A stretch of DNA of 64,000 nt. It comes from Methanomassiliicoccales archaeon (lineage in GTDB: Archaea; Thermoplasmatota; Thermoplasmata; RBG-16-68-12; SOIM01). The position numbers and the translations under genes are program-made. Under the pieces are notes generated by a model, which was not told the DNA's origin, made no database searches, and saw nothing but the letters and a program-made list of their open reading frames with translations. The stretch spans positions 40,463-104,462 of the forward strand of contig JAUVGH010000001.1 of NCBI GenBank assembly GCA_030593885.1, in the 5' to 3' direction. This document shows, in pieces, positions 1 through 26,607 of the stretch (positions are counted from its first letter, which is position 1; each line of letters starts with the position of its first letter).

Positions 1-3000
1 ACACAAGGTTGACCCCGGCCGAAAGGAACTTTGCGAACTTGCCTCCCTGATCCGTGGCCATCCCTCTGTTGGAGTTGGCGTCGATCGCTTCCACGGTGTA
101 GAAGTAATTGCTGGTGTCTCCGTCCCCGTCACCGATCGAGGTGAACGTGGTCTGACCTGCCGAGGCTTGGCCGAGGTAGGTGTAACCCACTCTTCCCTGG
201 TCGTAGACCGTTCCTTTGTAGATCTCATATGCCACAACATCAGCGGCCCCGCCCACTGAGGGATCGTCAGGAGAAAGCCCCCATATTATCCGAACACCCT
301 GGAAGAGACCCCCGACGAGCTCAGCAGAAACGAAGGTCGGTGGTGCAACAGATATGTCCGGGGGTGGTGGGGCGACCGTGAAATCGGCCCAATAGAAAGT
401 GCCCCAGTTCTCGTCACCCGAGGAGGGAACACCGTCCGGGTCGTCCCTTCCGTGGACCCAGAGGGTGTAGTTGCCCAGAGCCTCCCAAGCGCTGCCCGCG
501 ACCGGGCCTTGCCAGTCTACCGCTTCGGTCGGAGAATCGAAGTTGCCGTCCGATGCGACCATGGACACCCCAGTCCCGTAATCTCCGGGTACGGGCTCCG
601 CGGGCTGAACGAAGAACTCAGCCTCTCCCAGTAGGGAATTGCCTTTGAGGGTGTCATCCACTATCGCGCTGAATTGCACCAAGGATACGTTCGTCGTAGG
701 ATTGGAGGATATGACGACGCTTCCCGGTATGGTCATGGGGCCGAGCGTATCGCCGCCAGGTCTGAGGATCGTGAACGTGTTGTCCGAGATGTCGGTTCCG
801 TTGAGGGGCGGTGTGTCGCTGTCCTGAACCACCACCTTGACCATGTAGCGGTCCCCGTTGGGCATGGTCGATATGTCCCAAGTGTAGGAGATCTGTCCGG
901 CAGGGATCGCACCGTCAATAAGTGTCCAGGTCTGTCCTGTATCATGGCTGTAATAGGCCGCCTGCTGTGCAACCGCAGGAATCGCCGTCCTGTTCCAGTG
1001 AATGGTGGCCGTGTTCCCGCTGAACGTTTCGCCGCCGTTGGGATGAGTAAGGTCCACGACCGGGTGGTAATGGTCGTCAAGCAACCAGATTATCGTCTTG
1101 TTGAGCACATCTCCTCTGGTGGCTGAGTCAGATTGGGAGTAATCCATCCCAGTGAACTCGAAGAAGAAACCTGCTATCTTGGAAGGATATCCACCCCATA
1201 CGATGTTCGGGTCAGCCGTGCCGTTGGGAGCCGATGAGACCCATCTTATTCCAACGTTGTCCCTGTTCGCCAGCAGACCGTAGCTCTTCCATGAGTAGTA
1301 CACGTTACCTCCAGCATCAAGTCCCAGTATCTCATCACCGCTGGCACCTTGCCTGTGGTATGCATAGGATATCCTGCTGAACCCGGAGTATGAACCGCTG
1401 ATCGGGTCCCCGACGATACCCTCGACGGCTCCCCATGTATACGGATCCTCCTTCCAATCGACCTTCAGCGTTGATTTCAACCAGGAGTACCTCTCGGGGC
1501 TTGAGAATCCTGAACTGGATTGCGTGGACAAAGCCCAAGCAGTGTCGTGAGATGAGATGTAGAACCTTCCTCCTCCATCTATGTAGTTGGCGATCAAAGG
1601 TCTTTGCGAGTCCTCTATCGGAGGATACTGCTCCAGCCCGGTCTGCCACAGGACAGCCTTGTACTCCTGCAACAGCGCCAGGCTCGGGTCGCCGCTCCTG
1701 TCTATGTACCGGAGGTTGTACGACCATCCTCCCCATTCCAGCGCATCTCTGTAGCTCTGGACCCTGTTGGGCGGGAAGGTCTCATCGCCGATGACGAGCA
1801 ATATCTCGGCCTTCTCGGTTGTTGTGAACGTGTAATGGACTCCACCGAAGTCGTCCAAAGTGGTGTGTCCGAACCGATCGCTCGATTCGACATCGAAGTA
1901 ATACTTCGTTCCGGTCTCCAGCCCTATCAGGTCCACCTCGTGGTAGGTCTCCAGTGTGGGATCGTAATCGATCATCCCGAGGCCTGTTGTGTTGCCCCAG
2001 AACACCCTTGAGTCGCTGGACTCGTCCGTCTGCCAGGTCACCGTCGCGGCAGCGTTGGTGATGTCCTTGACCCGAACATTCGATATGATCGGACCCGCTG
2101 CGTCAACGCGCGCTGTCGCGGTCGAAACATGAACCGGAGAAACGTCGTTGTAAGTGACCGTTATGGTATCTAGGTCCGAGACCTCCAGCATCCCGTTGGG
2201 GAACGGTGCCCAGAAGGAGGTGTCGATCGAACCTCTGAATACCCCGCTTCCGACAGGCGTCAAAGCGACGACCTCTCCCGCAACCTCGGTGTCGCTCGTG
2301 GCTGTCACCGAGACCGATACCGCGTCCGAATCCTGGACCTCTATGTTGATCGTGTCGCTGTCCCCGTAGACGCCCTTGTCGATGTACACCTGACCGAACG
2401 ACCTGTCCAGGTCCCCTGAGATCACTAGGGCGAACGGCTGCGGGCCTGCCGGGATGCCGAATCCGGTGACCCTGACCTTCCAAATCCCCGTCGAAGGGTC
2501 GCCCAGTCTCACACCTTCCAGCGGGTTCTTGGCGTCGAAAAGACCGCCAGGCCTCGACTCACTGATGCCGAACGGTGTGCTGAACACATTACCTCTATAC
2601 ACGGTTCCTATCGGAGATACGACCTCAAGATTCAGGTCGTTGACCAATGCGGTCGGTGCTCCGAGCGTTCCGGGGAAGTCCGTCCATGCCAGCTGGACCC
2701 TGAGTTCCTGCCCCGAGTTGACGAAGTAACTGTACTCCACCCGGTCTCCCGTCAGGAGTCCTCCGGTGTGTTCCACTATCCCCATCTGCCTCGGGTCACC
2801 CGCGAGGTATAGGATCTTGTCCAGGTTGGGTCTGCCCCAACCCTGGGCGTTGTTGGGCCACTTCTGCTCGTTCTTGGAGTCTTTGTAGGACCCGGTCATC
2901 TTCTCCCCGCTTGCTGCCAGAACCGCCTTCATCAGCGCTGCAGATGGATCGAAGCTCTGCGCGAGATCACTTGCTCCCGTCGGGTACCATCCGTCCACGA

Positions 3001-4747
3001 AATACTGCCTTATGATCGCCACCGTGCCTGAAGCGGCCGGTGCGGCGTAGCTCGTCCCCAGCCAGCCGGTCGTTCTTCCCGGCAGGATGCTGGTCCACGG
3101 GTTGCCATCGCTCCTCGAAGAATATCCTTCTCCGACCATAGTGACCGTTGGCTTCAATCGACCGTCGGTCGTCGGTCCCCTGCTGCTGTAGCCCGCAACA
3201 TCGTTCTTGCCCCAGAAGGTCACCGGACTTACACTTCCGGCAGCCCCCGCAGACACGATAGACTTCGCCGTTGCTGGACTTCCCACGTCATACGGATCGC
3301 CAGATGCGGGTCCTCCGTTGCCGTTGGAGTATATGACAAGCATGTCCGGATAGTTCCACATGAACATATCTGTCATCCTTGCCTGAAGATCGTAATTGGA
3401 GTCATGCGTTCCCCAGCTGTTGCTGTGGATCCTTACCCCCGCGTTGTAGGGCTCTATATACATGTAGTAATAATCATCAGGGATGTATCTCAGGCAGTCG
3501 TCCCACGGGTCTCCCGGCTGCGGCCTGCAGACCGTTCCTATGTCCTGCATGAAGATCTGGGTTCCCTTTCCCTGTCCATCGTGAACGCTTGCCCCACCGA
3601 CATCATCGTCCCTGCCGGCGCCGGTTCCCGCCACCATGGTCCCGTGTCCGCTCGTGCCGCCCATGCCGGGTGCGCTGTCCTTGAGGGCCCATTCATCTCC
3701 CCCAGTGAAGGGATCGATTCCCACGTAACCGCTCATGGGGAGGTACCTGACCAGCTTCCTCCTTCCGAGGTCGGTGATATTGTAGATGTCCCCGGTGACT
3801 ATCAGTCCGGCCGATTGCCTGAAGAAGTTATGGTCGAAGTCCAGGCCGGTGTCGGCATATGCAATGATCTGACCGGTCCCGTCCAAACCCACATCCCACA
3901 TCTTCCTGTCGCCGTTCACGTTCGTCTGATGGATCCACTGCATGTTCTGGTTCTCGATCACCGGCTCATAATAGGGCTCGATGTATCTGACGAAATCCAG
4001 TGCAGCGATCTCTAGCAGTCGGTCGCCATCGATCTCCGCCTTCACCAACCCGAAGTCCGCGCCGATGGTCGAGCTGATGACCTGACCCGGTTCCAGCCTT
4101 GCCAGAACGGGATCCACTCCCCCGCCGTCATGTGTGATGATCTCCACTACGGTAGTGCCTTCCCTGTCCATCAGGTCTGGGCGTATCTTGTAGGCAGCGT
4201 GGAACAGTCCTGTCCACTGAACGAAATTGAGCCTTGAAATGCTCTCCTTCTCCTCTGAGTCCATCTTGACGATGAACGCGTTGTTGGGCACGTAATCGCC
4301 CAGTTCCGCTCCGAGGCTCTCGACACGGTTCTTCCATTCTTCCTTTGTCGGTCCAACGAACTGGATGATGTAATGGCCGGCGGCACCCCCTGGGTACTCG
4401 CCCGTCCTTAATTCCTCAGAGATCTTGGGTTCACCATCCCGCGTATCGAACTCATACCCGTTAAGGCCGATCACGTGGAGTCTCGGTTCCTTCTCAACAA
4501 GGTAACCACTGGATTCCAGAATCCCCTTCTCTCTATCTGTCAGCCTTCCAATGGCGAACGTGTCATACAGGCTGACGACCCTGAAACCGTTCAGACCTTC
4601 CTGACCATCTTGGCCGCTGAAGTAGATCCTGTAGTCGTTCCTTTCCGAGTTGTCATTCACAAAAGCATACACCGCCGAAAAAGCGGGTACAATCATAGCA
4701 ATCACTACCAACAAAGCAAGCATGCTCGATGTCTTTTTAGGTCCCAT
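1..4747 (-). CDS. Secreted multi-domain subtilisin-like (peptidase S8) serine protease; the C-terminus runs off the left edge of the window
   Basis: Absent from the supplied ORF track because there is no stop codon in the window. My own minus-strand translation from ATG 4747-4745 (GGAGGAGG at 4754-4761, 6-nt spacer) stays open down to position 2. N-terminus MGPKKTSSMLALLVVIAMIVPAFSAVYAF looks like a signal/anchor. Catalytic motifs: AYADTGLDFDH (Asp codon 3853-3851), GTSGHGTMVAG (His 3646-3644), GTSYAAPAASG (Ser 3052-3050). These are followed by a P-domain-like segment (LAWTDFPG..NDLNLEV) and an FN3-like segment (VTWQTDESSDSRVFWG..TKYYFDVES). None of the short minus-strand ORFs listed in 1-4750 uses this frame. 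Confidence 0.85.
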   Translation of the reverse strand, partial: MGPKKTSSMLALLVVIAMIVPAFSAVYAFVNDNSERNDYRIYFSGQDGQEGLNGFRVVSLYDTFAIGRLTDREKGILESSGYLVEKEPRLHVIGLNGYEFDTRDGEPKISEELRTGEYPGGAAGHYIIQFVGPTKEEWKNRVESLGAELGDYVPNNAFIVKMDSEEKESISRLNFVQWTGLFHAAYKIRPDLMDREGTTVVEIITHDGGGVDPVLARLEPGQVISSTIGADFGLVKAEIDGDRLLEIAALDFVRYIEPYYEPVIENQNMQWIHQTNVNGDRKMWDVGLDGTGQIIAYADTGLDFDHNFFRQSAGLIVTGDIYNITDLGRRKLVRYLPMSGYVGIDPFTGGDEWALKDSAPGMGGTSGHGTMVAGTGAGRDDDVGGASVHDGQGKGTQIFMQDIGTVCRPQPGDPWDDCLRYIPDDYYYMYIEPYNAGVRIHSNSWGTHDSNYDLQARMTDMFMWNYPDMLVIYSNGNGGPASGDPYDVGSPATAKSIVSAGAAGSVSPVTFWGKNDVAGYSSRGPTTDGRLKPTVTMVGEGYSSRSDGNPWTSILPGRTTGWLGTSYAAPAASGTVAIIRQYFVDGWYPTGASDLAQSFDPSAALMKAVLAASGEKMTGSYKDSKNEQKWPNNAQGWGRPNLDKILYLAGDPRQMGIVEHTGGLLTGDRVEYSYFVNSGQELRVQLAWTDFPGTLGAPTALVNDLNLEVVSPIGTVYRGNVFSTPFGISESRPGGLFDAKNPLEGVRLGDPSTGIWKVRVTGFGIPAGPQPFALVISGDLDRSFGQVYIDKGVYGDSDTINIEVQDSDAVSVSVTATSDTEVAGEVVALTPVGSGVFRGSIDTSFWAPFPNGMLEVSDLDTITVTYNDVSPVHVSTATARVDAAGPIISNVRVKDITNAAATVTWQTDESSDSRVFWGNTTGLGMIDYDPTLETYHEVDLIGLETGTKYYFDVESSDRFGHTTLDDFGGVHYTFTTTEKAEILLVIGDETFPPNRVQSYRDALEWGGWSYNLRYIDRSGDPSLALLQEYKAVLWQTGLEQYPPIEDSQRPLIANYIDGGGRFYISSHDTAWALSTQSSSGFSSPERYSWLKSTLKVDWKEDPYTWGAVEGIVGDPISGSYSGFSRISYAYHRQGASGDEILGLDAGGNVYYSWKSYGLLANRDNVGIRWVSSAPNGTADPNIVWGGYPSKIAGFFFEFTGMDYSQSDSATRGDVLNKTIIWLLDDHYHPVVDLTHPNGGETFSGNTATIHWNRTAIPAVAQQAAYYSHDTGQTWTLIDGAIPAGQISYTWDISTMPNGDRYMVKVVVQDSDTPPLNGTDISDNTFTILRPGGDTLGPMTIPGSVVISSNPTTNVSLVQFSAIVDDTLKGNSLLGEAEFFVQPAEPVPGDYGTGVSMVASDGNFDSPTEAVDWQGPVAGSAWEALGNYTLWVHGRDDPDGVPSSGDENWGTFYWADFTVAPPPPDISVAPPTFVSAELVGGLFQGVRIIWGLSPDDPSVGGAADVVAYEIYKGTVYDQGRVGYTYLGQASAGQTTFTSIGDGDGDTSNYFYTVEAIDANSNRGMATDQGGKFAKFLSAGVNLV

Positions 4748-4855
4748 ATCAGACCTCCTCCATTCTCCGATGCAATGTGTAAATATCGGTTCTGCCCACC
4801 AATGAATACACTCTGGACTATTGTATGAATTCTACGGTATAAAAGATTTGTCTAA

Positions 4856-6373: not shown

Positions 6374-6696
6374 TAGGTCGGTGATAGGCCACCGGGGTAG
6401 CCGCTCAGAACTGGCAAGAGGGAATCCCGAAACATTCTCAACCCCGCTACCCCACGAGCGTTGGTAATACGCGGTAAGGCTGCTCACTTCCGTGCCTGAC
6501 CCGATTCCCGCGATCAAGGCGGTGGCCGTGACCCTCCGGCCAAACCATCCGCCACCTCCAGCCCCGCGGGACAGGATATCATCGTTGTCCCAGGGCCTAT
6601 CACCAGGCTGGTTACGTCGTCCCCGGCTGTCAGCGCCGCCATGACGATTTCGGCTAGTAGAGGACGCCAAGCCCTCCGCTCAAGCCTACCAAGCCC
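6368..6696 (-). ncRNA. ffs: Signal recognition particle RNA (archaeal 7S RNA)
   Basis: The minus-strand read contains the helix-8 signature GGGTCAGGCACGGAAGTGAGCAGCC (~6478-6503). Compare the universal GGUCAGGUCCGGAAGGAAGCAGCC; here the GGAA tetraloop is closed by CAC/GTG. There is a helix-6-like hairpin with a GNAR loop (GGCC-GGAG-GGTC) inside GGTGGCGG..CCACCGCC. An 11-bp long-range pairing joins GGTGATAGGCC (6594-6604) to GGCCTATCACC (6380-6390). The ends pair as TGGTAGG/CCTATCA. A TATA box lies upstream and an oligo-T run lies just past the 3' end. Ends are +/- 10 nt. Confidence 0.85.
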
Positions 6697-6972: not shown

Positions 6973-9900
6973 ATGTGGGTCCTGAAAAGGCGAGAGGGGT
7001 CAGTCAATTACATATTTTTCTGGGCAATAATAGCGCTTCTGCTGGCCATTGGTCTTCTCTGCCTGTTCCTGTCGTTTCCACTCGTCTTCGGGAATGCATC
7101 CGCTCTTGTTGTCGATGAGAACATCGCCGTCATCCTCCTCATACTTGGCCTACTCCTTATCACGGTCTCCGGGGCCCTATCCATTCGTCAGGCCCGGCTC
7201 CTTGCACGCTTGAGGCAGCTCACCATGATGAAGGACAACGCCCGGTCCGGCCTGCGTCTCGCCGAGAGCATGGGCATCGACACCCAGAGGGCAGATGTCC
7301 TGTACAAAAGCGCCCAGGCCAACGTTGGATTCAGGAAGATCAAGGAATCAGAAGCGGCCATGACCGACTGCACCGCGATCCTCGAATCACAGCTGACACT
7401 TCACACCGATAAGCTCCTGGAGAAGACCAAGTCCCGAATGGAGCTCAAGAGGGATTCCACCGGGATACTGTTCAAGGACGAGTCGCTCAGACCTATCGAG
7501 GAAGAGCTGGAGAACGGTGACTACTGGGAGGTTTCCCGCCTTCTGCGGGCCCACAGCATTTCATCGGACAGGATAGAAGGGCTCTGGTACACCTTGAAGA
7601 AAGCCAAGAGACTGGGCATCCCGATCGAAGAGGACCTGAAGGACTTGAAGGACATTCTCATAGAGTTCAACAAGGGCAACTTCTCCGATGCCAGGGTGGG
7701 ATCCATCAGAACCAGGGATTCATTGAATGTTCGCATGAAGAGATACGTCCAGCAGAACTACGTCACTCCGGTTTATCGGAAGATCAACTCACTTGGGAAC
7801 AGGGGCATCGTATCCGAGGATGCCCGGGAACTGATGGCCAAAGCGGGCACCAATCTTCTCGCGGCCAATATCGAGAACACGATCAAGATGGCCAGTCTCG
7901 GTGGGTCCAGCATAGATGAGGCTACGAAGGTGGCTATCAACGAGTCCTTCGAGAAGTTGGATGACATCGCAACCCGGGCCGAGAGATTGGGTGTCGACGT
8001 TTCCTCTTATCCCCACCGGACGGACATCGCTAAGAGCGACCTGGAGGAAGGAAGGCTGGAGAAGAGCCTGGACGTTCTCCGGAACGCCGAGATGTCCATG
8101 ACCAAGGAGATGAACTTCGTTGTCGTGGAGCAATTCGTTCCACTCAGGAAGAGCATCGATACCTTGTTCCTTGTACCCGAATCCAGGCTCGAACTTGTCG
8201 AGATCCTGGACGGGGCCGACGGGGAGAGGAAGAAAGGGAACTTCGAAGAAGCGGTCGAGATGGCAGAGAAGCTTGCGGACAAGATCCAGATCGAGAAGAA
8301 AGAGTCCCTCAGGGCGATCAAGAGCTCTGCCAAGAAACTGGGAACCAAGGTGGAAGAGCTCGAAGAGAAAGGCGTCCCCACCAAGAAGATAAAGAAGGCA
8401 ATGAAGATCTCAGAGGAAGCGGCATTGGAAGAGAACTTCGTTGGGGCGATGGAGATACTGCTCAATGTCACTGAGATCGTAAACAAGAACCTGGCTCTGC
8501 ACAAGGATTCTGTCAGGACAATGGAAGAGCTCGCAACCCTGCTTGACAGAACAAAGGACAAAGGGGTCAAGGTGGCCGACCTCAGGAAGAAGATGAAGGC
8601 CCTGGAGAAGGTCACGGACCTGGAGCAGGTGATTTCCAAGGCCAAAAGGATAGAGGAGGTCGCTCTCCAAAGGATGACCGACGCGACAGAGAGGACCACG
8701 GTCAAACTCATGAAGATGAGGGACCAGCTTCACTCGCTGCTGGAACTCGGTGTGGACGTGGGCGAGGTACCCAAGCTCATCGGGGAAGCGGAATCTTCGG
8801 TCGAGAAGCAGAACTTCAAGAAGGCCGAGAAGATCGCCAAGAAGGCCGAGCAACAGCTGGAGGTGGCCATCGATCTTTCCGAGATGTTCGATGATCTCTT
8901 GGGGCAGATCGCGGAGACCTTCACTCTACTGGACACCGCTGGGGTTCCCACAACAGTTTTCGAATCAGACTTGCAGAACATCACGACCGAGAGGAACGCA
9001 GATACCCTAGAAGAACTGACCAGGTTCCTGGACGAGGTTCGTGCGGAGAAGGACAGGATAAGGAGCCAGGCCAGGGACACTTTGGAAGAGGCAGGGACCT
9101 TGGTCCAAGAACACCGAGACATATCGTTCGACGACGAGAATGAGATCATTGCCAAGGCGACCGAGGCCTACGACGATGGAAGGTTCAGCCAGGCGTTCGA
9201 GGTGGCCGTCGAGGCCGTTGGCAGGACGAAGAAGAAGGTGGAGCTTTTCGAGAATTCCACCGAAGCCTGCGAGGCCTTGGGCGAGATCATAAGACGGCTG
9301 AGCGAGGGCGGTTTTGACGCTCATTCACTGGAATCGGACCTCCAGATATGCGAGATGGACAGCGACCCAAGCTCACGAATTGAGAAGATCAGGACCCTTG
9401 AGGCGGAGGTCAAGAGAACCGAGTCCAAGTTGGTTCAGAATATGGACTGGGCGGCGGTCGAGGCGCGGCACGGGATATCCCTCCTTAAGGGGAATGAAGT
9501 CTCATCGGACGACCTGTCCGAGATGCTGACCTCGGCGAATGAGCTCGCAGAGAAGCTCAAATACCGGGATGCTGAGAAGAAGGCGAGGAACGTTCGCGAC
9601 CTGGCCGAAGAGAGGATCCAGCAGTTCAGGGAGGCGAAGGATCGGATGTCATCTCTTGAACATATCGTGAACAGGGCGAAGGAGATGGGCGTGTCTCTGG
9701 ACGAGCTCGAGGAAGATATATCCTGGCTGGAGAGCTCGGATGACTATTCTCACATAATAGAGAAGTCGGGGCTTCTTTTCGATCGGATCAACAACCTGTT
9801 CGAGGGCAATCGGGACGATGTCCGCGATTCATTATCCAGACTGAGAGAGACGGCGGCCGAGATGGAACAAATCGGGATTCGGGCAAAGACCGTCCTTGAG

Positions 9901-11703
9901 TTGATCGAGAAGGCCGAGCTGGAGATGAGTGAAGATAACATCATCGATGCCATGGACACATGCGACCTGGCCGAAGAGAGGATCACGAAGCTCAGAAAGA
10001 TGCATGAAAGATGGACCGGTGTCAAGGTGTCAGTTGATGAGGCCCTTAATGAGGCAACCCGCTTCGGCATCGGGGTCAAGGATTTCGAGACCAGACTGGA
10101 GATGCTTGAAGAATCCCAGGACTACGAATCATCGATACCGGAAATGGACAAGATACTGGACGACCTCAACGCAAGGAAGACAACGATGAGCACCAGAACA
10201 CTGGAGGACATTCAAACCACCCGGGAAAAGCTCGAGGATCTCATCGAGGATGGTGCAGCTGGCGGCGATCTGATGGACCTTCTCAAGAAGGCCGAGAAGG
10301 ATGTTCAGGAAGAGGAATACCTGTCGGCCCGCAAGAACATCATAGAGGCGGGCAGGGCGACCGAGCAGCTCAAGAATGACCACGAGAGTTTCGTTGCAGT
10401 GGTGGAGCAGGTCAAATCCGGGGTCGAAGAGGCTGCCGAGGCAGGCATGGACGTCAACGATGTCCTGGCAGAACTGGAAGATATCAGGAACTCAGAGTAC
10501 GATTACAAATCAAGGATCCAATTGGTGCGCGATCTGGGAGAGAAGTCAGCCGGAACTGCCGAGAGCCTGAGCCAAGAAGCCTCCGAGGCCATCTCCGAAG
10601 CTCGGGACATTCTGGACGACCTGAAAGCCAAGGGATTGACCGTCGGCGATGCCGAAAGCCTCCTGCTGGGGGCCGAGGACATGATGGGCGAGGGAAACAC
10701 CTTCGAGGCGAAAAGACTGGCACTTGAGGCCAAGACCCTGGCAGAGGAATCGTCAAGTCTGGCCGAGGAGAAAGAGGCCGAGATCAAGCGCGCCAGGGAA
10801 GCCATCGAAAAGGCCGCTGTCTGGGGCGTCAGCGTGTCCAATCTGGCGGGCGACCTGCAAGATGCTCTGAGGACCTCTAACGGCGCAGAGGCAATCCGGA
10901 AACTGAGGATGGTTGCCGAGGAGGCGGACAGCCTCAGGATGTCCTTGAGCGAGGATGCTGACGCTGATCTCGATGGCATCCGAATGGAGATCCAGAAACT
11001 GAAAGGGAAAGGTGTCCAAGTATCCAACCTGGAGGCCGTGCTGGCTTCCGCCGAGGAACTTATGTCACACGGAAAGGTGGACGAGGCCAATGAACTCATC
11101 GAGGCTCTGAACAAGGAAAAGTCGGGGCTGGATGAACTGGATTCAGATTTAGCGGATTTGAATGAGTCTCTTGACGAAGAAATGAAGAACATGGAAGTGA
11201 GAAAGAACGACCTGGCATCCATCGAGAGGGAAAGGGCGGAGATACAATCTCTCGGTCTTACCAAGGAAGCGCTGGAGAGGACGGAGGCCTTGCTGACCAT
11301 GGTCGCCACCGTCAAGAGGGAGCTCAGAGAGAGCACCGAGACGAGGCTGGGAGAGGTCCGGGAATTTGTCAACGAGCTCAGCGAGAAGGGCGAAGACGTT
11401 GAAGATGCCGTTTCAGTCCTATATGAGGCCGAAGAGGCACTCGCGGACGACGGATATCTTAAGGCACTGGCCAAGATCAACAGAGCTGCCGAGGTCGGAG
11501 AAAGCATCGACAAGAAGCACACCTTCGACAACTCACTCATGGAGACGGAGGAACTCCTGAAGGTCGCCAACGAAGAGGGCGTGGACGTGAACGACCTGAT
11601 GGAGGATCTTGAGAACCTTCGAGACGGGGACGACTACGCTCAGATGACCGAGACCCTCAAGATAATAGAAGAAGAGACCAACAAGCGCCGGAACGGGACC
11701 TAG
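6973..11703 (+). CDS. Giant (1576 aa) membrane-anchored alpha-helical repeat protein, function unknown
   Basis: Single uninterrupted ORF. Two N-terminal hydrophobic helices (YIFFWAIIALLLAIGLLCLFLSFPLVF and IAVILLILGLLLITVSGAL) are flanked by K/R (KRRE before, RQARLLARLRQL after). The remaining ~1490 aa are E/K/L/A/D-rich with regularly spaced G-[VIL]-x-[VL] turns. No Walker or other catalytic motifs seen. Confidence 0.9.
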   Translation: MWVLKRREGSVNYIFFWAIIALLLAIGLLCLFLSFPLVFGNASALVVDENIAVILLILGLLLITVSGALSIRQARLLARLRQLTMMKDNARSGLRLAESMGIDTQRADVLYKSAQANVGFRKIKESEAAMTDCTAILESQLTLHTDKLLEKTKSRMELKRDSTGILFKDESLRPIEEELENGDYWEVSRLLRAHSISSDRIEGLWYTLKKAKRLGIPIEEDLKDLKDILIEFNKGNFSDARVGSIRTRDSLNVRMKRYVQQNYVTPVYRKINSLGNRGIVSEDARELMAKAGTNLLAANIENTIKMASLGGSSIDEATKVAINESFEKLDDIATRAERLGVDVSSYPHRTDIAKSDLEEGRLEKSLDVLRNAEMSMTKEMNFVVVEQFVPLRKSIDTLFLVPESRLELVEILDGADGERKKGNFEEAVEMAEKLADKIQIEKKESLRAIKSSAKKLGTKVEELEEKGVPTKKIKKAMKISEEAALEENFVGAMEILLNVTEIVNKNLALHKDSVRTMEELATLLDRTKDKGVKVADLRKKMKALEKVTDLEQVISKAKRIEEVALQRMTDATERTTVKLMKMRDQLHSLLELGVDVGEVPKLIGEAESSVEKQNFKKAEKIAKKAEQQLEVAIDLSEMFDDLLGQIAETFTLLDTAGVPTTVFESDLQNITTERNADTLEELTRFLDEVRAEKDRIRSQARDTLEEAGTLVQEHRDISFDDENEIIAKATEAYDDGRFSQAFEVAVEAVGRTKKKVELFENSTEACEALGEIIRRLSEGGFDAHSLESDLQICEMDSDPSSRIEKIRTLEAEVKRTESKLVQNMDWAAVEARHGISLLKGNEVSSDDLSEMLTSANELAEKLKYRDAEKKARNVRDLAEERIQQFREAKDRMSSLEHIVNRAKEMGVSLDELEEDISWLESSDDYSHIIEKSGLLFDRINNLFEGNRDDVRDSLSRLRETAAEMEQIGIRAKTVLELIEKAELEMSEDNIIDAMDTCDLAEERITKLRKMHERWTGVKVSVDEALNEATRFGIGVKDFETRLEMLEESQDYESSIPEMDKILDDLNARKTTMSTRTLEDIQTTREKLEDLIEDGAAGGDLMDLLKKAEKDVQEEEYLSARKNIIEAGRATEQLKNDHESFVAVVEQVKSGVEEAAEAGMDVNDVLAELEDIRNSEYDYKSRIQLVRDLGEKSAGTAESLSQEASEAISEARDILDDLKAKGLTVGDAESLLLGAEDMMGEGNTFEAKRLALEAKTLAEESSSLAEEKEAEIKRAREAIEKAAVWGVSVSNLAGDLQDALRTSNGAEAIRKLRMVAEEADSLRMSLSEDADADLDGIRMEIQKLKGKGVQVSNLEAVLASAEELMSHGKVDEANELIEALNKEKSGLDELDSDLADLNESLDEEMKNMEVRKNDLASIERERAEIQSLGLTKEALERTEALLTMVATVKRELRESTETRLGEVREFVNELSEKGEDVEDAVSVLYEAEEALADDGYLKALAKINRAAEVGESIDKKHTFDNSLMETEELLKVANEEGVDVNDLMEDLENLRDGDDYAQMTETLKIIEEETNKRRNGT

Positions 11704-11807: not shown

Positions 11808-14800
11808 TTGGGCAGAATAATCGGTAAAATGGCTCCCCTTCTCATCGCTGCCCTTTTCCTCGTGGGTTCGTTATCGCCTTTGTTGACACCCGGAAAAGGA
11901 AGCGTCCAGAGCCAACAAACAGAAGAGGCGTTGCAGGAACCGCTTCCTCGGGGTGAATATCTCTTTGGTCCGGTCTCGGGTCAGAGGTATCTCATCGTCA
12001 AGGACATGGTCGAGGAGAGGACCAGCTACCTTGGGGAAAGCATTCTTTTCGAGGACCTTGAATCACTGGCAGAGTATGAACTGGGCCTTGCGGATGGGTC
12101 TTCGTATAAGATCGATGCCAAACTTCTGGAGGCCATGGGTGACGAGAGCTTGCAGAACGAGATCGTTTCCATCGTGGTGGAGATGAGGGAACAGCCTTCC
12201 CACGAGATCAGCCTGAAGACCAGGGCGGAGCACAAGCCTGCGCTCCAGGCACTGATGGACGAGAGGACTGCGATATATCAGGGTGCAAAGGCCAGGATAC
12301 CCGTTGATGCAGTTTCCATCATAGGACTGATCGAGAACACCATGACGTCATCCGAGGTCAGCCACCTGGAGCAGACCAACCTGAAGATCGACCTTAAGAC
12401 GTACGAGATCCGAAAGGAGATATTGGACATCACCGAGGTCGAGAACGCCCTTATCCAGGAAGATCTGTACAGCCGCCTTGGATCATTGGGCTACCGAATG
12501 GGCTATCAGGGGCATCTCTTCAATTCCTTCTCAGCCTGGGTCCCGGTCCACTCGATCGAAGCGATTGCTGATAGACAGGATGTAGGATTCGTCCACGCCA
12601 GTTTCAAGATGTACCCCCACCTGGACCACAGTCCTAACGCGATATACGCCAACGTCATGTGGAACAGCGGAATCGCCGGAGGACCCTGGGACCTAGTTGT
12701 TACCGATACTGGAATCAACGGAACACACCCCAACCTCCGCGAGGAATTCGAGAAGGTCGTTCACGACAACGGCCAGTTCGACCCAAGGTACATAGATAAT
12801 CCACTATCAACAGATGATTTCCACGGCCACGGGACTCACATCGCAGGCATCATCCTGAGCAACGACACCACCTACCAGGGCGTTGCATACGGCATGCGCA
12901 ACCTTATCGACGGCAAGTTCGGATATGACACGAGCGACGGACTGGGCGGAGGAGACTGGGGAGACTTCATGAAGATCACCGATTGGGCGGTCCAGACGGC
13001 CGGCGCTGATATCCTGAGCCTCAGCTACGGAGGCGGAGGCCTTACCAACGGCAACAGCGGACCCTCCAGATTCCTGGACGCGGTAATAGACGACCTCGGC
13101 ATCCCGATCGCCGTTTCAGCCGGCAACTCAGGTCCGGGCTCAGGTACGGTTGGCATTCCTGGTGATGCATTCAACATATTCAGCGTTGGGAGCATGAACG
13201 ATGCCAATTCCGACTCAAGGGTCGGGGACTCCCTCAGCGGTTTCAGCAGCCGGGGTCCTCTGGACGACGGAAGGATCGCACCGACCGTTGTGGCACCTGG
13301 ACAGAACATCATGTCCACAAACAACAAGTGGGCGACCGCGAACGATTTCATCTCCATGTCCGGGACGAGCATGGCAGCACCCCATGTCGCAGCCGCCACC
13401 CTTCTGATGCTGAACTACACCAACGATTCATCTCTTTTCCCCGCCGTGTACAGGGCACTCATGATCAACCATGCCGAGGACTGGGGGGTCGCAGGCGTGG
13501 ACAACGTTACCGGATGGGGCTACATCGACATGGACAAGACGCTCACCTGGATGGACTACCACATCGAAGGATTCGTCAACGATTCCCTCAGGTACAGGTT
13601 CTACAGGGGTTCTGTGGCCGCCGACGACAAGGCGACCCTGGCCTGGCAGAAGCATTCCATCTACATCGGCACCAGCTATCCCTTCCAGCACTGGCCGCCC
13701 AACGATCTCGATCTGTTCGTGTACGAGATGCCCACCAGGAACGAACTGGGACACTCCAGCTACTCTCTGAGCAATGTCGAACAGCTGAATTTCAATTCCG
13801 CCAGGGGAGACATTCTATTCAAGGTGAGGGCCTTCGGGACCATCATGGGTCCTGCGGACGAACCCTTCTCGCTCGCGCACATGGGAAGCTACACCGAGGT
13901 CATCCCTCCATATTACACAGTCGATGTCAGCGCTCCTTCCAACGTTCTCTTCGGGAGCCAGTTCACCGTGTTCGCCAATATCACCAACTTGGGACAGCTC
14001 GAGGGTTGGAACGTGAACGGACGCATCAACCTTCCCGGGGGACTCACCTTGCTCGGAGGTTCGAACCCCTCTCTGATAGGGAATCTTGTCAACGGGGCCA
14101 CCGGCATGGTCTCCTGGCAGGTTAGGGCCGACGCGGTCGGAGCACAGGCGTTCAATGTGGACGGTTATTCCACTTCCCTCGGCGAGACCTTCCTCAACAA
14201 CAGCGGGAACATCATCGTGGATGTCATAGATGTCGAGCTGCCCTTGATCCTGGACGTGAACGCACAGCCCAATCCGCAGGAGGTCTACGGGCTCGTGAAC
14301 ATCTCCTCACTCGTACTGGACAACACAGGCGTGAACAGGGTGGACGTGACCATCACAAAACCCGACCTGACTCCCTTCGGGAACTTCACCATGGGCTTCG
14401 ATGTAGGTTCCGGGAAGTACTTCTATTACGATACATACCCCGACCTGGGGGATTACACGTTCGACATCTGGGCCGAGGACATCAACAGCAACTGGAACAC
14501 ATCAGGTGGGATGTTCACGATACAGGACACCACCCCTCCGGAGTTGAGCAACCTTCTGGCCGTGCCGTCTCCTCAGGAGGTTTTTGGATTTGTCAATATC
14601 TCTTTGGACGTGACGGACAATTTCCTCTTATCCAATGTATGGGTGGAGATCACCGACCCGTTATCGGCCGTGACCAACTTCAGCATGAACAGCGGGTTCT
14701 TCGACAGTTTCTATCATGATGACGCTTACAATGTCCTCGGAACGTTCAACTTCATAGCTTGGGCTGTCGACAGTCTGGGGTTATGGAACTCCACCGGGGG

Positions 14801-17102
14801 GCAGTTCGTCGTTCAGGATTCGACCTTCCCCATTGCCGATGCGGGACCTGATCAATTCAATGTACTTATCGGGACATTGGTCAACTTCGACGGTACTGGA
14901 TCCAGCGACAACTACCAGATCGCATCCTATGTGTGGACCTTCTTCGATGGGGCTCCACAGACCATGATGGGGGTGACTCCCCAATACACATTCCTGACAG
15001 CATTCTGCTATGATGTCGATCTGAACGTTACAGATACAGCCGGCAACTATGCGCTAGACACCATGCGGGTGTGCACCATAGAACGCAATCCGCCTCTCAT
15101 TCAGAACGTGGCCGCTACACCGAACCCGCAGGAGATCTTCGGCTTCGTGAACATCTCAGCAGACGTGTGGGATGATTACGGGTTGGTCGGTGTGTGGATC
15201 AAGGTCGTTGCACCAGACATGACAACCACCAACGTGTCCATGACATCCGGGCCTGGTGACCTCTACTACTACCGCAGGATGTACACCGAGCTGGGAACGT
15301 ATGATTTCACCATCTGGACAATTGATGTATACGACAACTGGAACTCCTCACAGGGTTCGTTCATCATCGACGATTGGACGCCTCCCGAGATGAACAACGT
15401 TGGTATCAATCCAGCAACCCAGCAAATACATGGATCCGTGAACATCACCCTGTTCGTGACCGATAACCATCAGGTGGACCAGGTCCTCATCGACATCACC
15501 GACCCCGACGGCCTTACTCTAACCAACACCTCAATGAGCTTCTTCATCTTGGCACTTCAGCACTTCTACAAGGACTTCTACGACAAACTGGGCACGTACA
15601 ACCTCACCATCTGGGCGAGCGATTTCAGCGGCAACTGGAACAGCTCCAGTGAGTCTTTCGTCATACATGACACCCTTTTCCCGATATTCATCAGCATCGG
15701 TGCCGATCCCAACCCGCAGGAGGTGTTCTTCGAGGTCAACATAACCACGTCCGTTTCGGACAACCACATGGTCATCGGAGCGTGGGTCAACGTCAGCGAC
15801 CCGAGCGGCGGTTTCGTGGGGAACTACTCCATGAACGAGGAAAGCCCTGGGAATTACTGGCTCTCAAGGAGTTACGATCTTCTTGGACGGTTCGACTTCA
15901 TGATATGGGCGTCCGACCTCGTGGGCAACTGGAACTCGCTGGGCAGGCCCTTCAGGATAGAGGACGGTACCAGACCCTCGGTGACGCCGCTTCAAAGCAA
16001 TCCGCAGGTCGAAGTGTACAGCGACCTCAATCTCACCGCGAACGCAACGGACAACTTCGAGCTCGCAGGAGTCTGGGTGATCATCTACACTCCCGCAGGC
16101 AGTCCGATGGGCAACTTCACCATGGTCGAGAATCCGGGAGTCGTGGCCAACTATTATTATGAGCAGCTGTCATTCGGCTCTCTCGGCGAGTTCTCCTACT
16201 TCATGGCCGTCAAGGACACAAGCGGTAACTGGAACGCCTCGTGGGAGACGTTCACTGTGGTTGACCAGACGCCGCCTGTCGCGGATGCGGGTCCGGGACG
16301 AGCTGTCGTGCAGGGGACGGTCGTTTCCTTGGACGGAGGGGGAAGCAGCGACAATTTCGGCAACGTGGATGAGTTCAACTGGACGTTCGATCATGATGGA
16401 AGCCCTGTATTGCTGACGGGGTCCAACCCATTGTATACCTTTGATATTCCTGGCAACTACACAATAACCCTCGAAGTGACCGATTCATCCGGTAACAAGG
16501 ACACGGACACAACATGGGTCGACGTCACCGCCAAGGACAGCGACGGTGACGGTCTGACGGACGATTACGAGAACCAGATAGGGACAGACCCGCTCAAAAG
16601 GGACTCGGACGACGACGGTCTGGATGATGGGGAAGAGATCGCCATCGGGACCGACCCGCTTGACAACGACACCGACGACGACGGGATACTTGACGGACAG
16701 GACGACCTTCCGCTAATACCCAACGAGGATGACGGAACCACTGGGGGGAACTTCCTAGCAGAGTACTGGTGGATTATATTGCTGATGATCCTCTTGATCG
16801 CCATCGCACTTCCAATAATCTTCGCCAGCGGCAGGAAACGGAAGAAGGAAGAGAAAGAGAAACTCAGGGAGAAGAAGAGGAGACAGGCGAGGCTCAGGAA
16901 GAAGAGGGCCGCCCGGAGGGCCAGGATGGAAGCTGAAATGCTCCCACCACCGATGGAAGAAGATTTGGTGCCCGAACCTGACGAACCGCCTCCGCCGCCG
17001 GACAAAGAGGCTCCACCGCCTCCGGATGAGACGCCTGCGCCGCCCGACAAGGAGACGCCCCCGCCTCCTGACGACGAAGCACCGCCGCCACCGACTGATT
17101 AG
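11808..17102 (+). CDS. Giant (1764 aa) secreted, membrane-anchored subtilisin-like (S8) protease with repeat, PKD-like and TSP3-like modules
   Basis: Signal/anchor [15 protein letters not shown]. Triad motifs [14 protein letters not shown] (Asp), [11 protein letters not shown] (His), [13 protein letters not shown] (Ser). Six ~97-aa repeats (..[29 protein letters not shown]). Two PKD-like modules ([15 protein letters not shown] and [15 protein letters not shown]). DxDxDG calcium-type repeats ([30 protein letters not shown]). TM helix [20 protein letters not shown], then a K/R/E-rich stretch and a PPPPD-repeat tail. The start could be TTG 11808 or ATG 11829. Confidence 0.9.
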
Positions 17103-17121: not shown

Positions 17122-17472
17122 CTACCCGCTCATCAACTTAACGATAGCCTCAGCAGGTTCTCCATCGCATTCTTCCAGGGCCTTCTTGGCTTCCTCTTCA
17201 GAGACATTTGCCTTCTCCGCGACCAGCTTTATGTCCTCTAAAGGGATGCTCACGTCCCCGTCCCTCTCGGCCACATCCGCGGTCCCGACTATCTGCCAGG
17301 TCTCCTGCCCTTGAACGGTCGTCCTGGTCACATCCGGGTTCCTGAAAACATACTCATTTGAAACAGTTCTGATGATGACCTCCTCAACTCCCTCTATCTC
17401 CTCGGTCTCGATCCCCATCTGTTTCATCATTCTCTTCATCTGTCTCGGATTCATCCGTCCGCCTGGAATCAT
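17122..17472 (-). CDS. nac: Nascent polypeptide-associated complex protein (archaeal NAC)
   Basis: The 116-aa product starts MIPGGRMNPRQMKRMMKQMGIETEEI.., the typical NAC N-terminus. It has a NAC beta-barrel segment and a UBA-like C-terminus (SEEEAKKALEECDGEPAEAIVKL). The 93-aa upstream extension in the track ORF overlaps the ABCE1 start and is not NAC-like. Confidence 0.85.
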   Translation of the reverse strand: MIPGGRMNPRQMKRMMKQMGIETEEIEGVEEVIIRTVSNEYVFRNPDVTRTTVQGQETWQIVGTADVAERDGDVSIPLEDIKLVAEKANVSEEEAKKALEECDGEPAEAIVKLMSG

Positions 17473-17520
17473 ACGAATCACTTTGGTAATCTGACTCTCT
17501 CTAAAAAAGCGTTGGGATTG

Positions 17521-17528
17521 TTTAAATA
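17521..17528 (+). promoter_or_regulatory. TATA-box-like element for ABCE1 (probably a leaderless transcript)
   Basis: TTTAAATA lies ~24 nt upstream of the GTG at 17552 that yields the canonical ABCE1 N-terminus. Confidence 0.45.
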
Positions 17529-17551
17529 GATTGGTCCTATTGAAAGGGTTC

Positions 17552-19321
17552 GTGAGAATCGCGGTACTTCTGAGGGATAGGTGCCAGTCCAAGAGATGTT
17601 CCCTCGAATGCATCAGATATTGCCCTCCGGTGAGAACGGGTAGCGAAGCGATCGTCTTGGGGGAGGACGGTAGAGCTGTCATATCCGAGGAGCTGTGCGT
17701 CGGGTGCGGCATCTGCGTCAACAAGTGCCCTTTCGACGCCATCAGGATCATAGGCCTTCCCGAGGAATTGGAGGGGGAATTGGTACATCAGTACGGTGAG
17801 AACGGCTTTCAGCTCTACAGACTGCCCTGTCCGAAGAGCGGTATGGTGGTGGGTCTGCTGGGCCCAAACGGGATTGGAAAGACAACCGTCATCTCCATAC
17901 TTTCAGGAAGACTTGTGCCAAATCTGGGGGAATATGACGAGGAACCCGACTGGGAGCCGGTGCTCGAGCATTTCGCCGGGACGGAACTTCACGATTATCT
18001 CGAGAAGATCGCTGAAGGAGAATGGGGGGCGGCAATGAAGCCGCAGTACGTGGACCAGCTCGGAAAGGTGTACAAAGGAGTCGTCTCCGACCTTCTCAAG
18101 AAGGCAGATCACAACGACAAGCTCTCGGATGTTCAGGATGAACTGGAGCTTGCCAGCTTCATGAACAAGGATGTGAAGAAGCTCTCGGGAGGGGAGATGC
18201 AGCGACTGGCCATCGCTGCCACACTGCTCAAAGAGGCGGATGTCTACTTCTTCGACGAGCCTTCATCGTACCTGGATATCTACCAGCGCCTCCAGGTCGC
18301 AAAATCCATCCAGAAGCTCGCCGAGAACAAACCCGCGGTGGTGGTGGAGCACGATCTGGCCGTCTTCGATTTCCTCGCTACCAACGTCTATCTCATGTAC
18401 GGGTCAGAGGGGGCATTCGGCGTTCTTTCCCATCCGCGCCAGGTGAGGTCGGCCATCAACGTCTACCTTGGAGGCTACATGAAGGAGGAGAACGTCCGGT
18501 TCAGGGACACCGAGATCAAGTTCGAGTCCCACCCGCCCAGGAAGGAATGGTCGAAGGTTCCGTTGCTGCACTTTGAGCCGCTTAAGAAGAGGTTCAAGAA
18601 CTTCACCTTGAGCACTGGTGAGGGTAGTATCGGCATTGGAGAGGTCGTTGGGGTGGTCGGTCCCAACGCCACAGGAAAGACCACCTTCGTCAAGATGCTG
18701 GCGGGCGAGTTCAAGCCCACTGCGGGGACGGTTAGCACCGAGGTGAAGGTCAGCTACAAGCCTCAATACCTGGAGACCAAGTTCGCGGGTTCGGTGAAGG
18801 AGCTCTTCATGACAGAGATGTACGAGGAGTTCCAGGAGGACTTCTTCCAGGGCCAGATACTTCAGCCGCTGGGGGTCGCCCCACACCTTGAGAGGGAGTT
18901 GAAGAGTCTATCCGGAGGCGAACTGCAGAGGGTCGCCATCGCTCTGTGTCTCGGAAGGACGGCGGACCTGTACCTCATTGACGAACCTTCTGCCTACCTG
19001 GACTCCAACCAGAGGATGCAGGCGGCCAAGACTATCAGAAGGACCATGGAGAAGAAAGGGCTGAGCGGGCTCATTGTGGACCACGACGTCTATTTCCTGG
19101 ATCTCGTATCGGATTCTCTGATGGTCTTCGGCGGAGAGCCGGGGATTAGTGGCATTGGTGAAGGCCCATTCGGAATGAGGGACGGGATGAACAAGTTCCT
19201 GAAGATGGTGGAGATAACTTTCAGAAGGGACAGCGAGACCAACAGGCCCAGGATCAACAAGTTCGGATCTTCAAAGGACAGGGACCAGAAGGCAAAAGGC
19301 GAATACTACTACTCTTCCTGA
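17552..19321 (+). CDS. abce1: ABCE1 / RNase L inhibitor-type ribosome recycling ATPase
   Basis: From GTG 17552 the product begins (M)RIAVLLRDRCQSKRCSLECIRYCPPVRTG.., which is the N-terminal 2x[4Fe-4S] domain (CVGCGICVNKCP). Two ABC cassettes follow (GLLGPNGIGKTT and GVVGPNATGKTT, each with LSGGE signatures). Confidence 0.92.
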   Translation: MRIAVLLRDRCQSKRCSLECIRYCPPVRTGSEAIVLGEDGRAVISEELCVGCGICVNKCPFDAIRIIGLPEELEGELVHQYGENGFQLYRLPCPKSGMVVGLLGPNGIGKTTVISILSGRLVPNLGEYDEEPDWEPVLEHFAGTELHDYLEKIAEGEWGAAMKPQYVDQLGKVYKGVVSDLLKKADHNDKLSDVQDELELASFMNKDVKKLSGGEMQRLAIAATLLKEADVYFFDEPSSYLDIYQRLQVAKSIQKLAENKPAVVVEHDLAVFDFLATNVYLMYGSEGAFGVLSHPRQVRSAINVYLGGYMKEENVRFRDTEIKFESHPPRKEWSKVPLLHFEPLKKRFKNFTLSTGEGSIGIGEVVGVVGPNATGKTTFVKMLAGEFKPTAGTVSTEVKVSYKPQYLETKFAGSVKELFMTEMYEEFQEDFFQGQILQPLGVAPHLERELKSLSGGELQRVAIALCLGRTADLYLIDEPSAYLDSNQRMQAAKTIRRTMEKKGLSGLIVDHDVYFLDLVSDSLMVFGGEPGISGIGEGPFGMRDGMNKFLKMVEITFRRDSETNRPRINKFGSSKDRDQKAKGEYYYSS

Positions 19322-25983: not shown

Positions 25984-26607
25984 TCAGAGGTAGTCCCCGA
26001 CCTCCACCTTCCAGGCGTCATGCATCATGCGGGATTTATCCGCATTGGCCGAACTGCGTATGGAGAACTTGATCGCATTTCTGTATTCACCCTTCTCCAT
26101 CTCGGCCCTGGCCTTCTCCAAGAGTTCCAGTGCCTCTTCCACGTTTCCCCCGTGTTCGCTCGCAAGGTTGATCTTCCTCTCGGCTCTCCCCAGTCGAAGG
26201 AGCAAAGCATCGAACTGCCTCGCGATGACCTCGGCTTCTTGACCGCAACGGGAGGCTATCTCCAGCGCCACCGGGTACTCATTCTCCGAAAGCGCGACCT
26301 TTGCCCTCGCCAATAGGGCCTCCGCGGCGGGGAACATGGCACCGTTCCTCTTACCGTTGCCAATGATGGTCATGGCATATGCCATCGCGCCCTCGACTAT
26401 CAGCCTGTACTCACGCGTACGGGGATCCTTCTCCTTGGAAAACTTGGCGGCCTCTTTGACCTTCGAGCCGCACCATGGGCACACGACATCGAGATCTTCG
26501 AGCTGTTCGCTGCAACCCGGACAATGAACAACAGTAATGTAGTGCTCTTTCAAAGCTTCCCACCTATCTCCTCCGTCGAGGCCGTCAACCTCCATCATAT
26601 CTGTCAT
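25984..26607 (-). CDS. Zinc-ribbon protein with helical-repeat C-terminus, function unknown
   Basis: One ribbon (CPGC..x12..CPWC), then helical units PAAEALLARAKVALSENEYPVALEIAS and GGNVEEALELLEKARAEMEKGEYRNAIKFSI. Confidence 0.75.
   Translation of the reverse strand: MTDMMEVDGLDGGDRWEALKEHYITVVHCPGCSEQLEDLDVVCPWCGSKVKEAAKFSKEKDPRTREYRLIVEGAMAYAMTIIGNGKRNGAMFPAAEALLARAKVALSENEYPVALEIASRCGQEAEVIARQFDALLLRLGRAERKINLASEHGGNVEEALELLEKARAEMEKGEYRNAIKFSIRSSANADKSRMMHDAWKVEVGDYL

Follow-up and report, generated by a model that had tools for sequence, protein, structure and literature searches.

The gene at positions 6973..11703 (+) of a 64,000-nucleotide stretch of contig JAUVGH010000001.1 from a Methanomassiliicoccales archaeon (hereafter the window) encodes a giant protein whose architecture is well supported: a two-helix membrane hairpin is followed by a predicted cytoplasmic rod of 24 helical units of about 63 residues each, which alternate between two types in the distal part. 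We infer that the protein functions as a membrane-anchored cytoplasmic scaffold or spacer of fixed length, to which we assign a probability of about 0.5. The open reading frame, at the coordinates given in an earlier note on the window that was based on the sequence alone, begins with ATG, has no earlier in-frame start, and comprises 1576 residues. The product is rich in glutamate, leucine, alanine, lysine, and aspartate, with a net charge of -110, and contains 12 prolines and 5 cysteines. Antisense frames within the gene (8007-8711 (-), 10503-11570 (-), and others, up to 355 codons) have Ser/Leu-rich low-complexity translations; they most likely reflect the GAR-rich codons used on the sense strand and are not genes.

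The periodicity was evident when the protein was compared with itself. The mean BLOSUM62 diagonal score peaked at an offset of 126 residues, well above 20 shuffled sequences (z = 7.6), with further peaks near 252, 378, 504, and 630 and a weaker half-period at 62 (z = 4.0). Between residues 101 and 1536, a G-[VIL]-x-[VL] turn returns at intervals of about 63 residues, and 24 units fit one register. When an alignment of 17 orthologues was cut into 63-column profiles that were compared with each other by HHalign, two classes separated, which bears out the alternating A and B units that the earlier note had aligned by hand. Type A units have their G-turns at residues 467, 593, 968, 1095, 1221, 1347, and 1473, and type B units at residues 531, 657, 780, 1032, 1158, 1285, and 1536. 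Within a class, the HHalign probability reached 94%, whereas between A and B it was mostly near 0, with a maximum of 26%. The consensus motifs (type A, G..ve..e.LleaAE.v..Egnf.eA; type B, GVdVsdLesdLe.Le.S.Dy) agree with those read earlier, and all seven example peptides of the note lie in the unit types to which they had been assigned.

The A/B pairs that had been proposed, at least nine in a row, were recovered as nine double units of 126 residues (aa 445-1576, nt 8305-11700), which are mutually in register by HHalign with probabilities of 83-97% and E-values down to 1.4e-11. The pairs had been aligned by hand from about position 8380 on, but the 63-residue spacing already starts at about residue 79 and continues to the C-terminus. 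The six membrane-proximal units (residues 79-444, with G-turns at residues 101, 164, 215, 278, 340, and ~404) keep the spacing and the helix pattern, and their similarity to the distal units was not significant by HHalign. Three non-overlapping blocks of 378 residues, each comprising three double units, are 15-21% identical to each other, and the resulting 30 sequences align almost without gaps in 386 columns. A hidden Markov model (HMM) of the 126-position double unit gave nine matches in the giant protein with E-values of 1e-25 to 1e-36, which are circular for this protein, as its sequences were part of the seed.

The length of the rod is far better conserved than its sequence. We found 18 close relatives, 17 of them full-length, all from uncultured Thermoplasmata or Methanomassiliicoccales-like genomes. 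At 48-94% identity, the orthologues have 1573-1587 residues, and the number of units is the same in all 17. Within residues 45-1509, the 17-sequence alignment contains one single-residue indel in one sequence, and apart from the termini, the only indel-prone place is the loop between the two membrane helices (~aa 38-50). Identity at orthologous positions averages 71% versus 15-21% between repeats, and therefore each unit has its own conserved identity. Invariant polar residues in the 17 orthologues are unevenly distributed: there are 15 at residues 821-883, 14 at residues 884-946, and 12 each at residues 79-141 and 509-571, only 1 at residues 256-318, and 1-3 in each of the three units at residues 1263-1450 (1 at residues 1388-1450). 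Units carry a net charge of about +3 to -5 in aa 79-633 and, for the most part, of -7 to -11 from aa 635 on. Judged from these alignments, the length and register of the rod are under very strong constraint, and double unit 4 is a candidate docking site.

We modeled two parts of the protein with AlphaFold2. Residues 1199-1576, for which the alignment rows included other repeat blocks, gave a mean predicted local distance difference test score (pLDDT) of 89.7 and a predicted template modeling score (pTM) of 0.57, and residues 1-570, based on 11 orthologues, gave 87.1 and 0.54. The cytoplasmic part is nearly all helix in the models, as assigned by DSSP. In both models, a unit opens with a short helix (12-19 residues) and, after a turn of three residues, continues with a long helix (30-45 residues) before it closes with a turn of five residues, which is the G-[VIL]-x-[VL] turn. 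A small three-helix bundle would be formed by the last part of a long helix, the short helix behind it, and the first part of the long helix that follows.

Mean-field direct coupling analysis (DCA) of 611 distinct double-unit instances (effective number 522), taken from the orthologues and a wider superfamily of relatives, supports this packing. The strongest couplings link the end of the preceding long helix to the short helix in antiparallel orientation (13-37, 20-30), the short helix to the start of the next long helix, also antiparallel (29-55, 36-55), and the two long helices in parallel orientation with a near-constant offset of ~42 (12-52, 19-59). The B bundle has its own couplings between long helices (72-114, 76-113). 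Among the top 10, 20, and 30 couplings, 9, 15, and 21 fit a staggered three-helix bundle, compared to 1.9, 3.7, and 5.6 expected (p = 2e-6 to 9e-10). As the DCA check for antiparallel long helices overlapped with the parallel class, the parallel packing is deduced from the shortness of the connectors and from a sequence offset that stays roughly constant. Models and couplings together support a cytoplasmic part in which small three-helix bundles are strung along continuous long helices, and as an architecture, the spectrin-like array suggested in the earlier note thus holds. Since the covariation offset is 40-42 within a 63-residue unit, each unit would add about 21-23 residues of helix rise, or ~3.2-3.4 nm, and a straight rod of 24 units would have a length of roughly 70-80 nm.

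The rod is predicted to be anchored by its own N-terminus. Two hydrophobic stretches with Kyte-Doolittle peaks near 2.9 are flanked by basic residues on their outer sides (K5/R6/R7 before helix 1, R72/R75/R79/R81 after helix 2). The basic flanks of membrane helices face the cytoplasm, which is known as the positive-inside rule. As lysine and arginine residues occupy both outer flanks and the loop between the helices is acidic, both termini are predicted to be cytoplasmic, and the two-helix hairpin would place the repeats in the cytoplasm. In the model, residues 49-99 are one helix, made up of membrane helix 2 and the initial long helix of the cytoplasmic part, and the anchor would thus continue unbroken into the rod. 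Three further observations argue for cytoplasmic repeats. First, no signal peptide was found in the giant protein. Second, N-X-S/T sequons occur at chance frequency (8 observed, 7.1 expected), unlike in the extracellular S8 protease encoded next to it (32 observed, 15.6 expected). Third, the first 441 residues of a 2759-residue paralogue, P0019, are 47% identical to the N-terminus of the giant protein with a single gap, and its C-terminus carries an FHA domain and a double zinc ribbon, domain types that are usually cytoplasmic. The N-in/C-in topology of the earlier note is therefore supported by flank charges, sequon counts, and the paralogue. The features of the gene and its neighbors are compiled in Table 1.

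Table 1. Features of the giant gene and of the adjoining genes, in window coordinates.
Feature	Position (nt)	Strand	Basis
Archaeal signal recognition particle (SRP, 7S) RNA gene	6382-6691	-	Rfam RF01857; 179 bits, E 3e-42
Whole giant gene, 1576 codons + stop	6973..11703	+	List of open reading frames; 17 full-length orthologues, 48-94% identity
Conserved N-terminal cytoplasmic peptide (aa 1-12, MWVLKRREGSVN), predicted	6973..7008	+	Net positive; K5, E8, G9, S10, Y13 invariant (17 orthologues)
Transmembrane helix 1 (~aa 13-37), predicted	7009..7083	+	Hydropathy peak 2.94; AlphaFold2 helix 2-39
Short acidic outside loop (~aa 38-50), predicted	7084..7122	+	D48, E49, no K/R; low pLDDT, non-helical 40-48
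Transmembrane helix 2 (~aa 51-70), predicted to run on into first long cytoplasmic helix	7123..7182	+	Hydropathy peak 2.86
Membrane-proximal module, six diverged ~63-aa units (aa 71-444)	7183..8304	+	Register, AlphaFold2 helices; approximately neutral charge
A/B double unit 1 (aa 445-570)	8305..8682	+	HHalign in register up to 96%; HMM E 2.5e-30
A/B double unit 2 (aa 571-697)	8683..9063	+	HHalign, HMM
A/B double unit 3 (aa 698-820)	9064..9432	+	HHalign, HMM
A/B double unit 4 (aa 821-945), most conserved rod stretch, 29 invariant polar residues	9433..9807	+	HHalign, conservation
A/B double unit 5 (aa 946-1072)	9808..10188	+	HHalign, HMM
A/B double unit 6 (aa 1073-1198)	10189..10566	+	HHalign, HMM
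A/B double unit 7 (aa 1199-1324)	10567..10944	+	HHalign, HMM, AlphaFold2
A/B double unit 8 (aa 1325-1450), least conserved, spacer-like	10945..11322	+	HHalign, AlphaFold2, conservation
A/B double unit 9 (aa 1451-1576), C-terminal rod end	11323..11700	+	HHalign, HMM, AlphaFold2
S8 subtilase, 1764 aa, PKD + TSP3 repeats	11808..17102	+	Pfam; starts 104 nt after giant gene
S8 C-terminal membrane helix	~16764-16826	+
S8 cytoplasmic tail, 91 aa	~16827-17099	+

Comparisons with known families gave no assignment. Scans of the giant protein with Pfam, NCBIfam, and PADLOC returned only sub-threshold noise (Apolipoprotein, DUF2096_N, MamH, Cas11e), and the PADLOC anti-phage models matched at chance level only, with Cas11e at E 0.008 and no stretch passing. 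The 30 repeat blocks matched 130 different Pfam families, none of which was hit by more than 7 of the 30 blocks. The spectrin repeat PF00435 did not match the whole protein at E <= 1 nor any of the repeat blocks, and the Pfam models of FIVAR, GA, EzrA, TPR, MIT, and DUF4398 matched neither the whole protein nor the blocks. A single-sequence search of the PDB yielded no match, and EbhA was found there neither with the single sequence nor with the profile. The profile search did retrieve de novo designed toroid repeats (E 2e-6), which we attribute to the likeness of idealized helices and not to homology. There was no Foldseek match at E <= 1e-3 for either of the two models against the PDB or for one model against viral structures. 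The weak top matches were all elongated helical proteins: vinculin, catenin, PRC1, EbhA, spectrin, EzrA, and phage tape-measure proteins. The fragment models that the earlier note had suggested are confident and helical and had no significant match to a known fold, and membership in a family of the spectrin, MIT, or TPR type, as opposed to likeness in architecture, is not supported, given the lack of any sequence or fold match.

The similarity of the type A motif to a GNYxxA helix of MIT and TPR bundles, noted earlier, stays at the level of the motif. The type A short helix ends in G-[ND]-[YF], followed by x-x-A-x-x-x-A, which resembles the turn between the two helices of a TPR, but no TPR or MIT profile matched at E <= 1. 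Moreover, the second helix of the giant protein's unit, with ~40 residues, extends through two bundles, unlike the helices of TPR and MIT domains.

The closest parallel in architecture is the staphylococcal Ebh/Embp protein with its FIVAR-GA repeats. According to PMC4330918, which summarizes Tanaka et al. 2008, the 126-residue Ebh repeat forms two different three-helix bundles on continuous long helices that build an elongated rod (2dgj). The giant protein likewise has a 126-residue repeat of two alternating three-helix bundles in a giant membrane-anchored rod, and EbhA was among the top non-significant fold matches (target-normalized TM-score, the template modeling score, 0.31-0.37; Foldseek E 2-3 for 2dgj). 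However, Ebh is bacterial, extracellular, and cell-wall-associated, with a strain-variable number of repeats, whereas the giant protein is archaeal, predicted to be cytoplasmic, and fixed at 24 units, and it lacks any FIVAR or GA sequence match. As a sequence relationship is undetectable, the repeat is best described as a new family that gives an Ebh- or spectrin-like rod, and the likeness to Ebh as convergence or very remote kinship, not membership.

Spectrin shares the tandem three-helix bundles in which the last helix runs into the first of the next repeat, and the best query-normalized TM-score (0.39) was obtained with the spectrin-fold rod of PRC1. Spectrin repeats, however, have ~106 residues and three helices of similar length, in contrast to the 63/126-residue unit with one helix of 12-19 and one of ~40 residues, and the giant protein carries membrane helices of its own as a direct anchor. 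A role in a membrane skeleton or as a spacer is drawn from spectrin by analogy. EzrA of the Firmicutes also begins with a membrane anchor that is followed by cytoplasmic helical-bundle repeats, but it has one membrane helix instead of two and ~560 residues, its Foldseek E-values were 7.4-9.9, and a sequence match is absent. Golgins and phage tape-measure proteins, the latter being the best-scoring, though not significant, hits among the viral structures, are likewise long and helical, with one end anchored, a length that is conserved more strictly than the sequence, and a projection into the cytoplasm. They differ in being dimeric or trimeric coiled coils, whereas the giant protein is modeled as a single-chain string of bundles, and homology was not detected. 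The concept of length-conserved helical rods as spacers has been reviewed (PMC5082667).

The repeat is not confined to the orthologues. An exhaustive profile search with residues 1-1198 against 1.84 billion representatives found 128 proteins at E <= 1e-3, 55 of them at E <= 1e-10; a word-indexed homologue search with the repeat profile had returned two fragments only. Among 126 independent relatives, most full-length proteins contain 8-27 matches to the double-unit model, and all named organisms among the stronger matches belong to the Thermoplasmatota. The relatives fall into classes with different ends. P0019, P0020, and P0022 (2700-2770 residues) have the same two-helix anchor and N-terminal module and a C-terminus with an FHA domain and a double zinc ribbon. 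P0019 (locus L013, 10001-18280) stands behind the same set of genes for an S8 protease, a KaiC-like protein, and a 195-residue protein as the giant gene, and it is followed by two more FHA genes. One metagenome-assembled genome (locus tags ACE5KV) encodes both the giant type and the FHA type. In P0024, P0025, P0034, and P0040 (2232-3551 residues), the C-terminal ~780 residues comprise a GCS2-like domain (carboxylate-amine ligase; glutamate-cysteine ligase family 2) and then beta-rich domains, and within this class only P0024 has N-terminal hydrophobic stretches. P0041, P0031, and P0037 (1450-1620 residues) carry CARDB and a prokaryotic RING finger in their C-terminal ~180 residues and have no membrane helix. 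By these domain assignments, the rod is a reusable module with differing end domains. In the weaker relatives P0057, P0081, P0075, and P0092 from Thermococcus sp. and metagenomes, some of which match DUF4398 within the repeat, a signal peptide and LamG, PEGA, or beta-propeller domains precede the repeats and a C-terminal membrane anchor follows them; there, the repeat appears to be an extracellular stalk.

The earlier note had also suspected a link to two zinc-ribbon proteins of the window, 25984-26607 (-) with 207 residues and 26707-27702 (-) with 331 residues. Such a link exists in that each protein has about two repeat units at its C-terminus (E 4e-10 and 2e-7 against the double-unit HMM), with near-canonical type A motifs, GGNVEEALELLEKARAEMEKGEYRNA and GGDVVKAMELLESSKDEVRKGNYRKA, respectively. 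The search for TPRs in the small zinc-ribbon relative gave sub-threshold matches only.

A constant neighbor of the giant gene encodes the S8 subtilase, which lies directly downstream in all 11 distinct loci, including the L003 lineage, where the upstream genes have been replaced. Behind its membrane helix, the protease has a tail of ~45 very basic residues that is followed by P4-5-[DE] repeats, and this tail is kept in six orthologues down to the lineage with 48% identity. We tentatively, and with low confidence, consider the basic proline-rich tail a candidate partner of the acidic rod, by electrostatic or motif contact. On the upstream side, a gap of 570-630 bp is conserved in five further loci (L001, L002, L005, L006, L007). 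We had suspected a regulatory element in it, but it holds the SRP RNA gene instead. Farther upstream are the genes for a 203-residue protein, for which neither families nor structures gave a match, and for a single-domain KaiC-like ATPase.

Downstream of the protease gene, the window continues with NAC and ABCE1. The mechanically called NAC frame, 17122-17751 (-), has 209 codons, and its NAC domain covers residues 102-159. As called orthologues have only 102-116 residues, the true start is probably an internal codon, which would also remove the overlap with the ABCE1 frame at 17531. An open frame that comprises at least 1610 codons (2-4831 (-)) runs off the left edge of the window; its start resembles a signal peptide (MGPKKTSSMLALLVVIAMIVPAFSAVYA), and the gene order in L002, L005, L006, and L013 suggests that it probably encodes a further giant S8 protease.

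How could such a protein work? As a scaffold or spacer, the rod would hold partners at set distances from the membrane, with the conserved polar patches as discrete docking sites that alternate with poorly conserved, spacer-like units. This reading is based on the constrained length and register, the alternation of polar patches with variable units, the strongly acidic character of the outer two-thirds, and the gene neighborhood.

Several points weigh against it or limit its reach. The DCA contact classes, which were drawn from the AlphaFold2 helices, are wide enough to admit 18.5% of all pairs, and therefore the covariation lends support to the bundle model but is no proof of it. That the rod is straight and rigid is an assumption, with pTM values of only 0.54-0.57. 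As the distant relatives use the repeat outside the cell, cellular location is not inherent to it. With regard to the protease, the intergenic gap varies from 61 to 355 nt and a TATA-like element precedes the S8 gene, which weighs against assuming co-transcription. All loci stem from one order-level clade, so that the adjacency may be inherited gene order and not functional linkage. Finally, all organisms that carry the orthologues are uncultured.

Other functions have to be weighed against a scaffold or spacer. The alternative that fares best, although we regard it as unlikely, is a docking platform for Ser/Thr phospho-signalling, at which FHA proteins, kinases, or related regulators would be recruited to the membrane by phospho-dependent conserved patches. 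The FHA and double zinc ribbon ends of the closest paralogues P0019, P0020, and P0022, which share the N-terminal module, the two FHA genes that follow P0019, and a Ser/Thr kinase and a VWA protein encoded upstream of the L003 orthologue would fit this function. The giant protein itself, however, has no FHA, kinase, or phosphatase domain, and neither in the window nor in L001, L002, L005, L006, or L007 does a gene for a kinase or an FHA protein lie next to it. Somewhat less probable still is a regulator of division or of the cytoskeleton that organizes FtsZ or another filament under the membrane in the manner of EzrA. Despite the common layout of N-terminal anchor and cytoplasmic helical-bundle repeats, the EzrA chains among the weak fold matches are not significant (Foldseek E 7-10) and have no counterpart at the sequence level, the number of membrane helices differs, and division genes are adjacent in no locus, the nearest hint being a tubulin/FtsZ-family gene ~10 kb away in L001.

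An extracellular stalk or adhesin, comparable to Ebh or the Thermococcus surface proteins, is very unlikely. P0057, P0081, P0075, and P0092 do carry the repeat outside, between a signal peptide and a C-terminal anchor, and Ebh is extracellular (PMC4330918), but the giant protein lacks a signal peptide, has K/R on the outer flanks and an acidic loop between the helices, is not enriched in sequons, unlike the S8 protease, and has a paralogue with the same N-terminus that ends in FHA and zinc-ribbon domains. Even less credible is an amphipathic-helix protein that binds or remodels membranes like apolipoprotein or PspA/Vipp1: the weak apolipoprotein matches (Pfam E 0.0027, PDB profile E 0.02-0.09) score far below the family cut-off (17.9 versus 90 bits), the helices are confidently predicted as packed bundles, and a net charge of -110 disfavors membrane binding. 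An ATPase of the SMC/Rad50/SbcC type, as implied by the Joint Genome Institute (JGI) name of the orthologues P0005 and P0006 ('DNA repair exonuclease SbcCD ATPase subunit'), can be dismissed almost entirely, and the earlier note had rightly refuted it, since the giant protein has no Walker A motif (G-x4-G-K-[ST]), no SMC_N or AAA match in Pfam or NCBIfam, short hairpin bundles instead of a long antiparallel coiled coil, and a membrane anchor. As no Walker motif or SMC-type domain occurs in the family, the SbcCD label is likely a misannotation caused by the helical, charged composition.

If the rods and the protease do act together, a further step is conceivable, to which we give only a small chance: arrays of the acidic ~75 nm rods bound by S8 tails would couple both sides of the membrane and form a cortical skeleton of defined depth that is tied to the surface coat. 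If true, the S8-coupled rods would correspond in archaea to the membrane skeleton that spectrin forms, with a repeat that is unrelated to it.

The rods of spectrin, Ebh, and EzrA set distances and organize membranes in eukaryotes and bacteria. In the literature searched, we found no description of an archaeal counterpart of such tandem-bundle rod proteins. In the scaffold or spacer described here, an Ebh-like architecture appears to have been reached from an unrelated sequence, with a length that is near constant even at 48% identity, and over 100 further giant proteins of archaea, which end in FHA, RING-finger, or ligase-like domains, make use of the repeat as well. The idealized, near indel-free 63/126-residue unit may also serve as a natural template for the design of rigid protein spacers. 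Should the rod join a partner to the membrane at a set distance, it would provide a first handle on the sub-membrane organization of uncultured Thermoplasmata.

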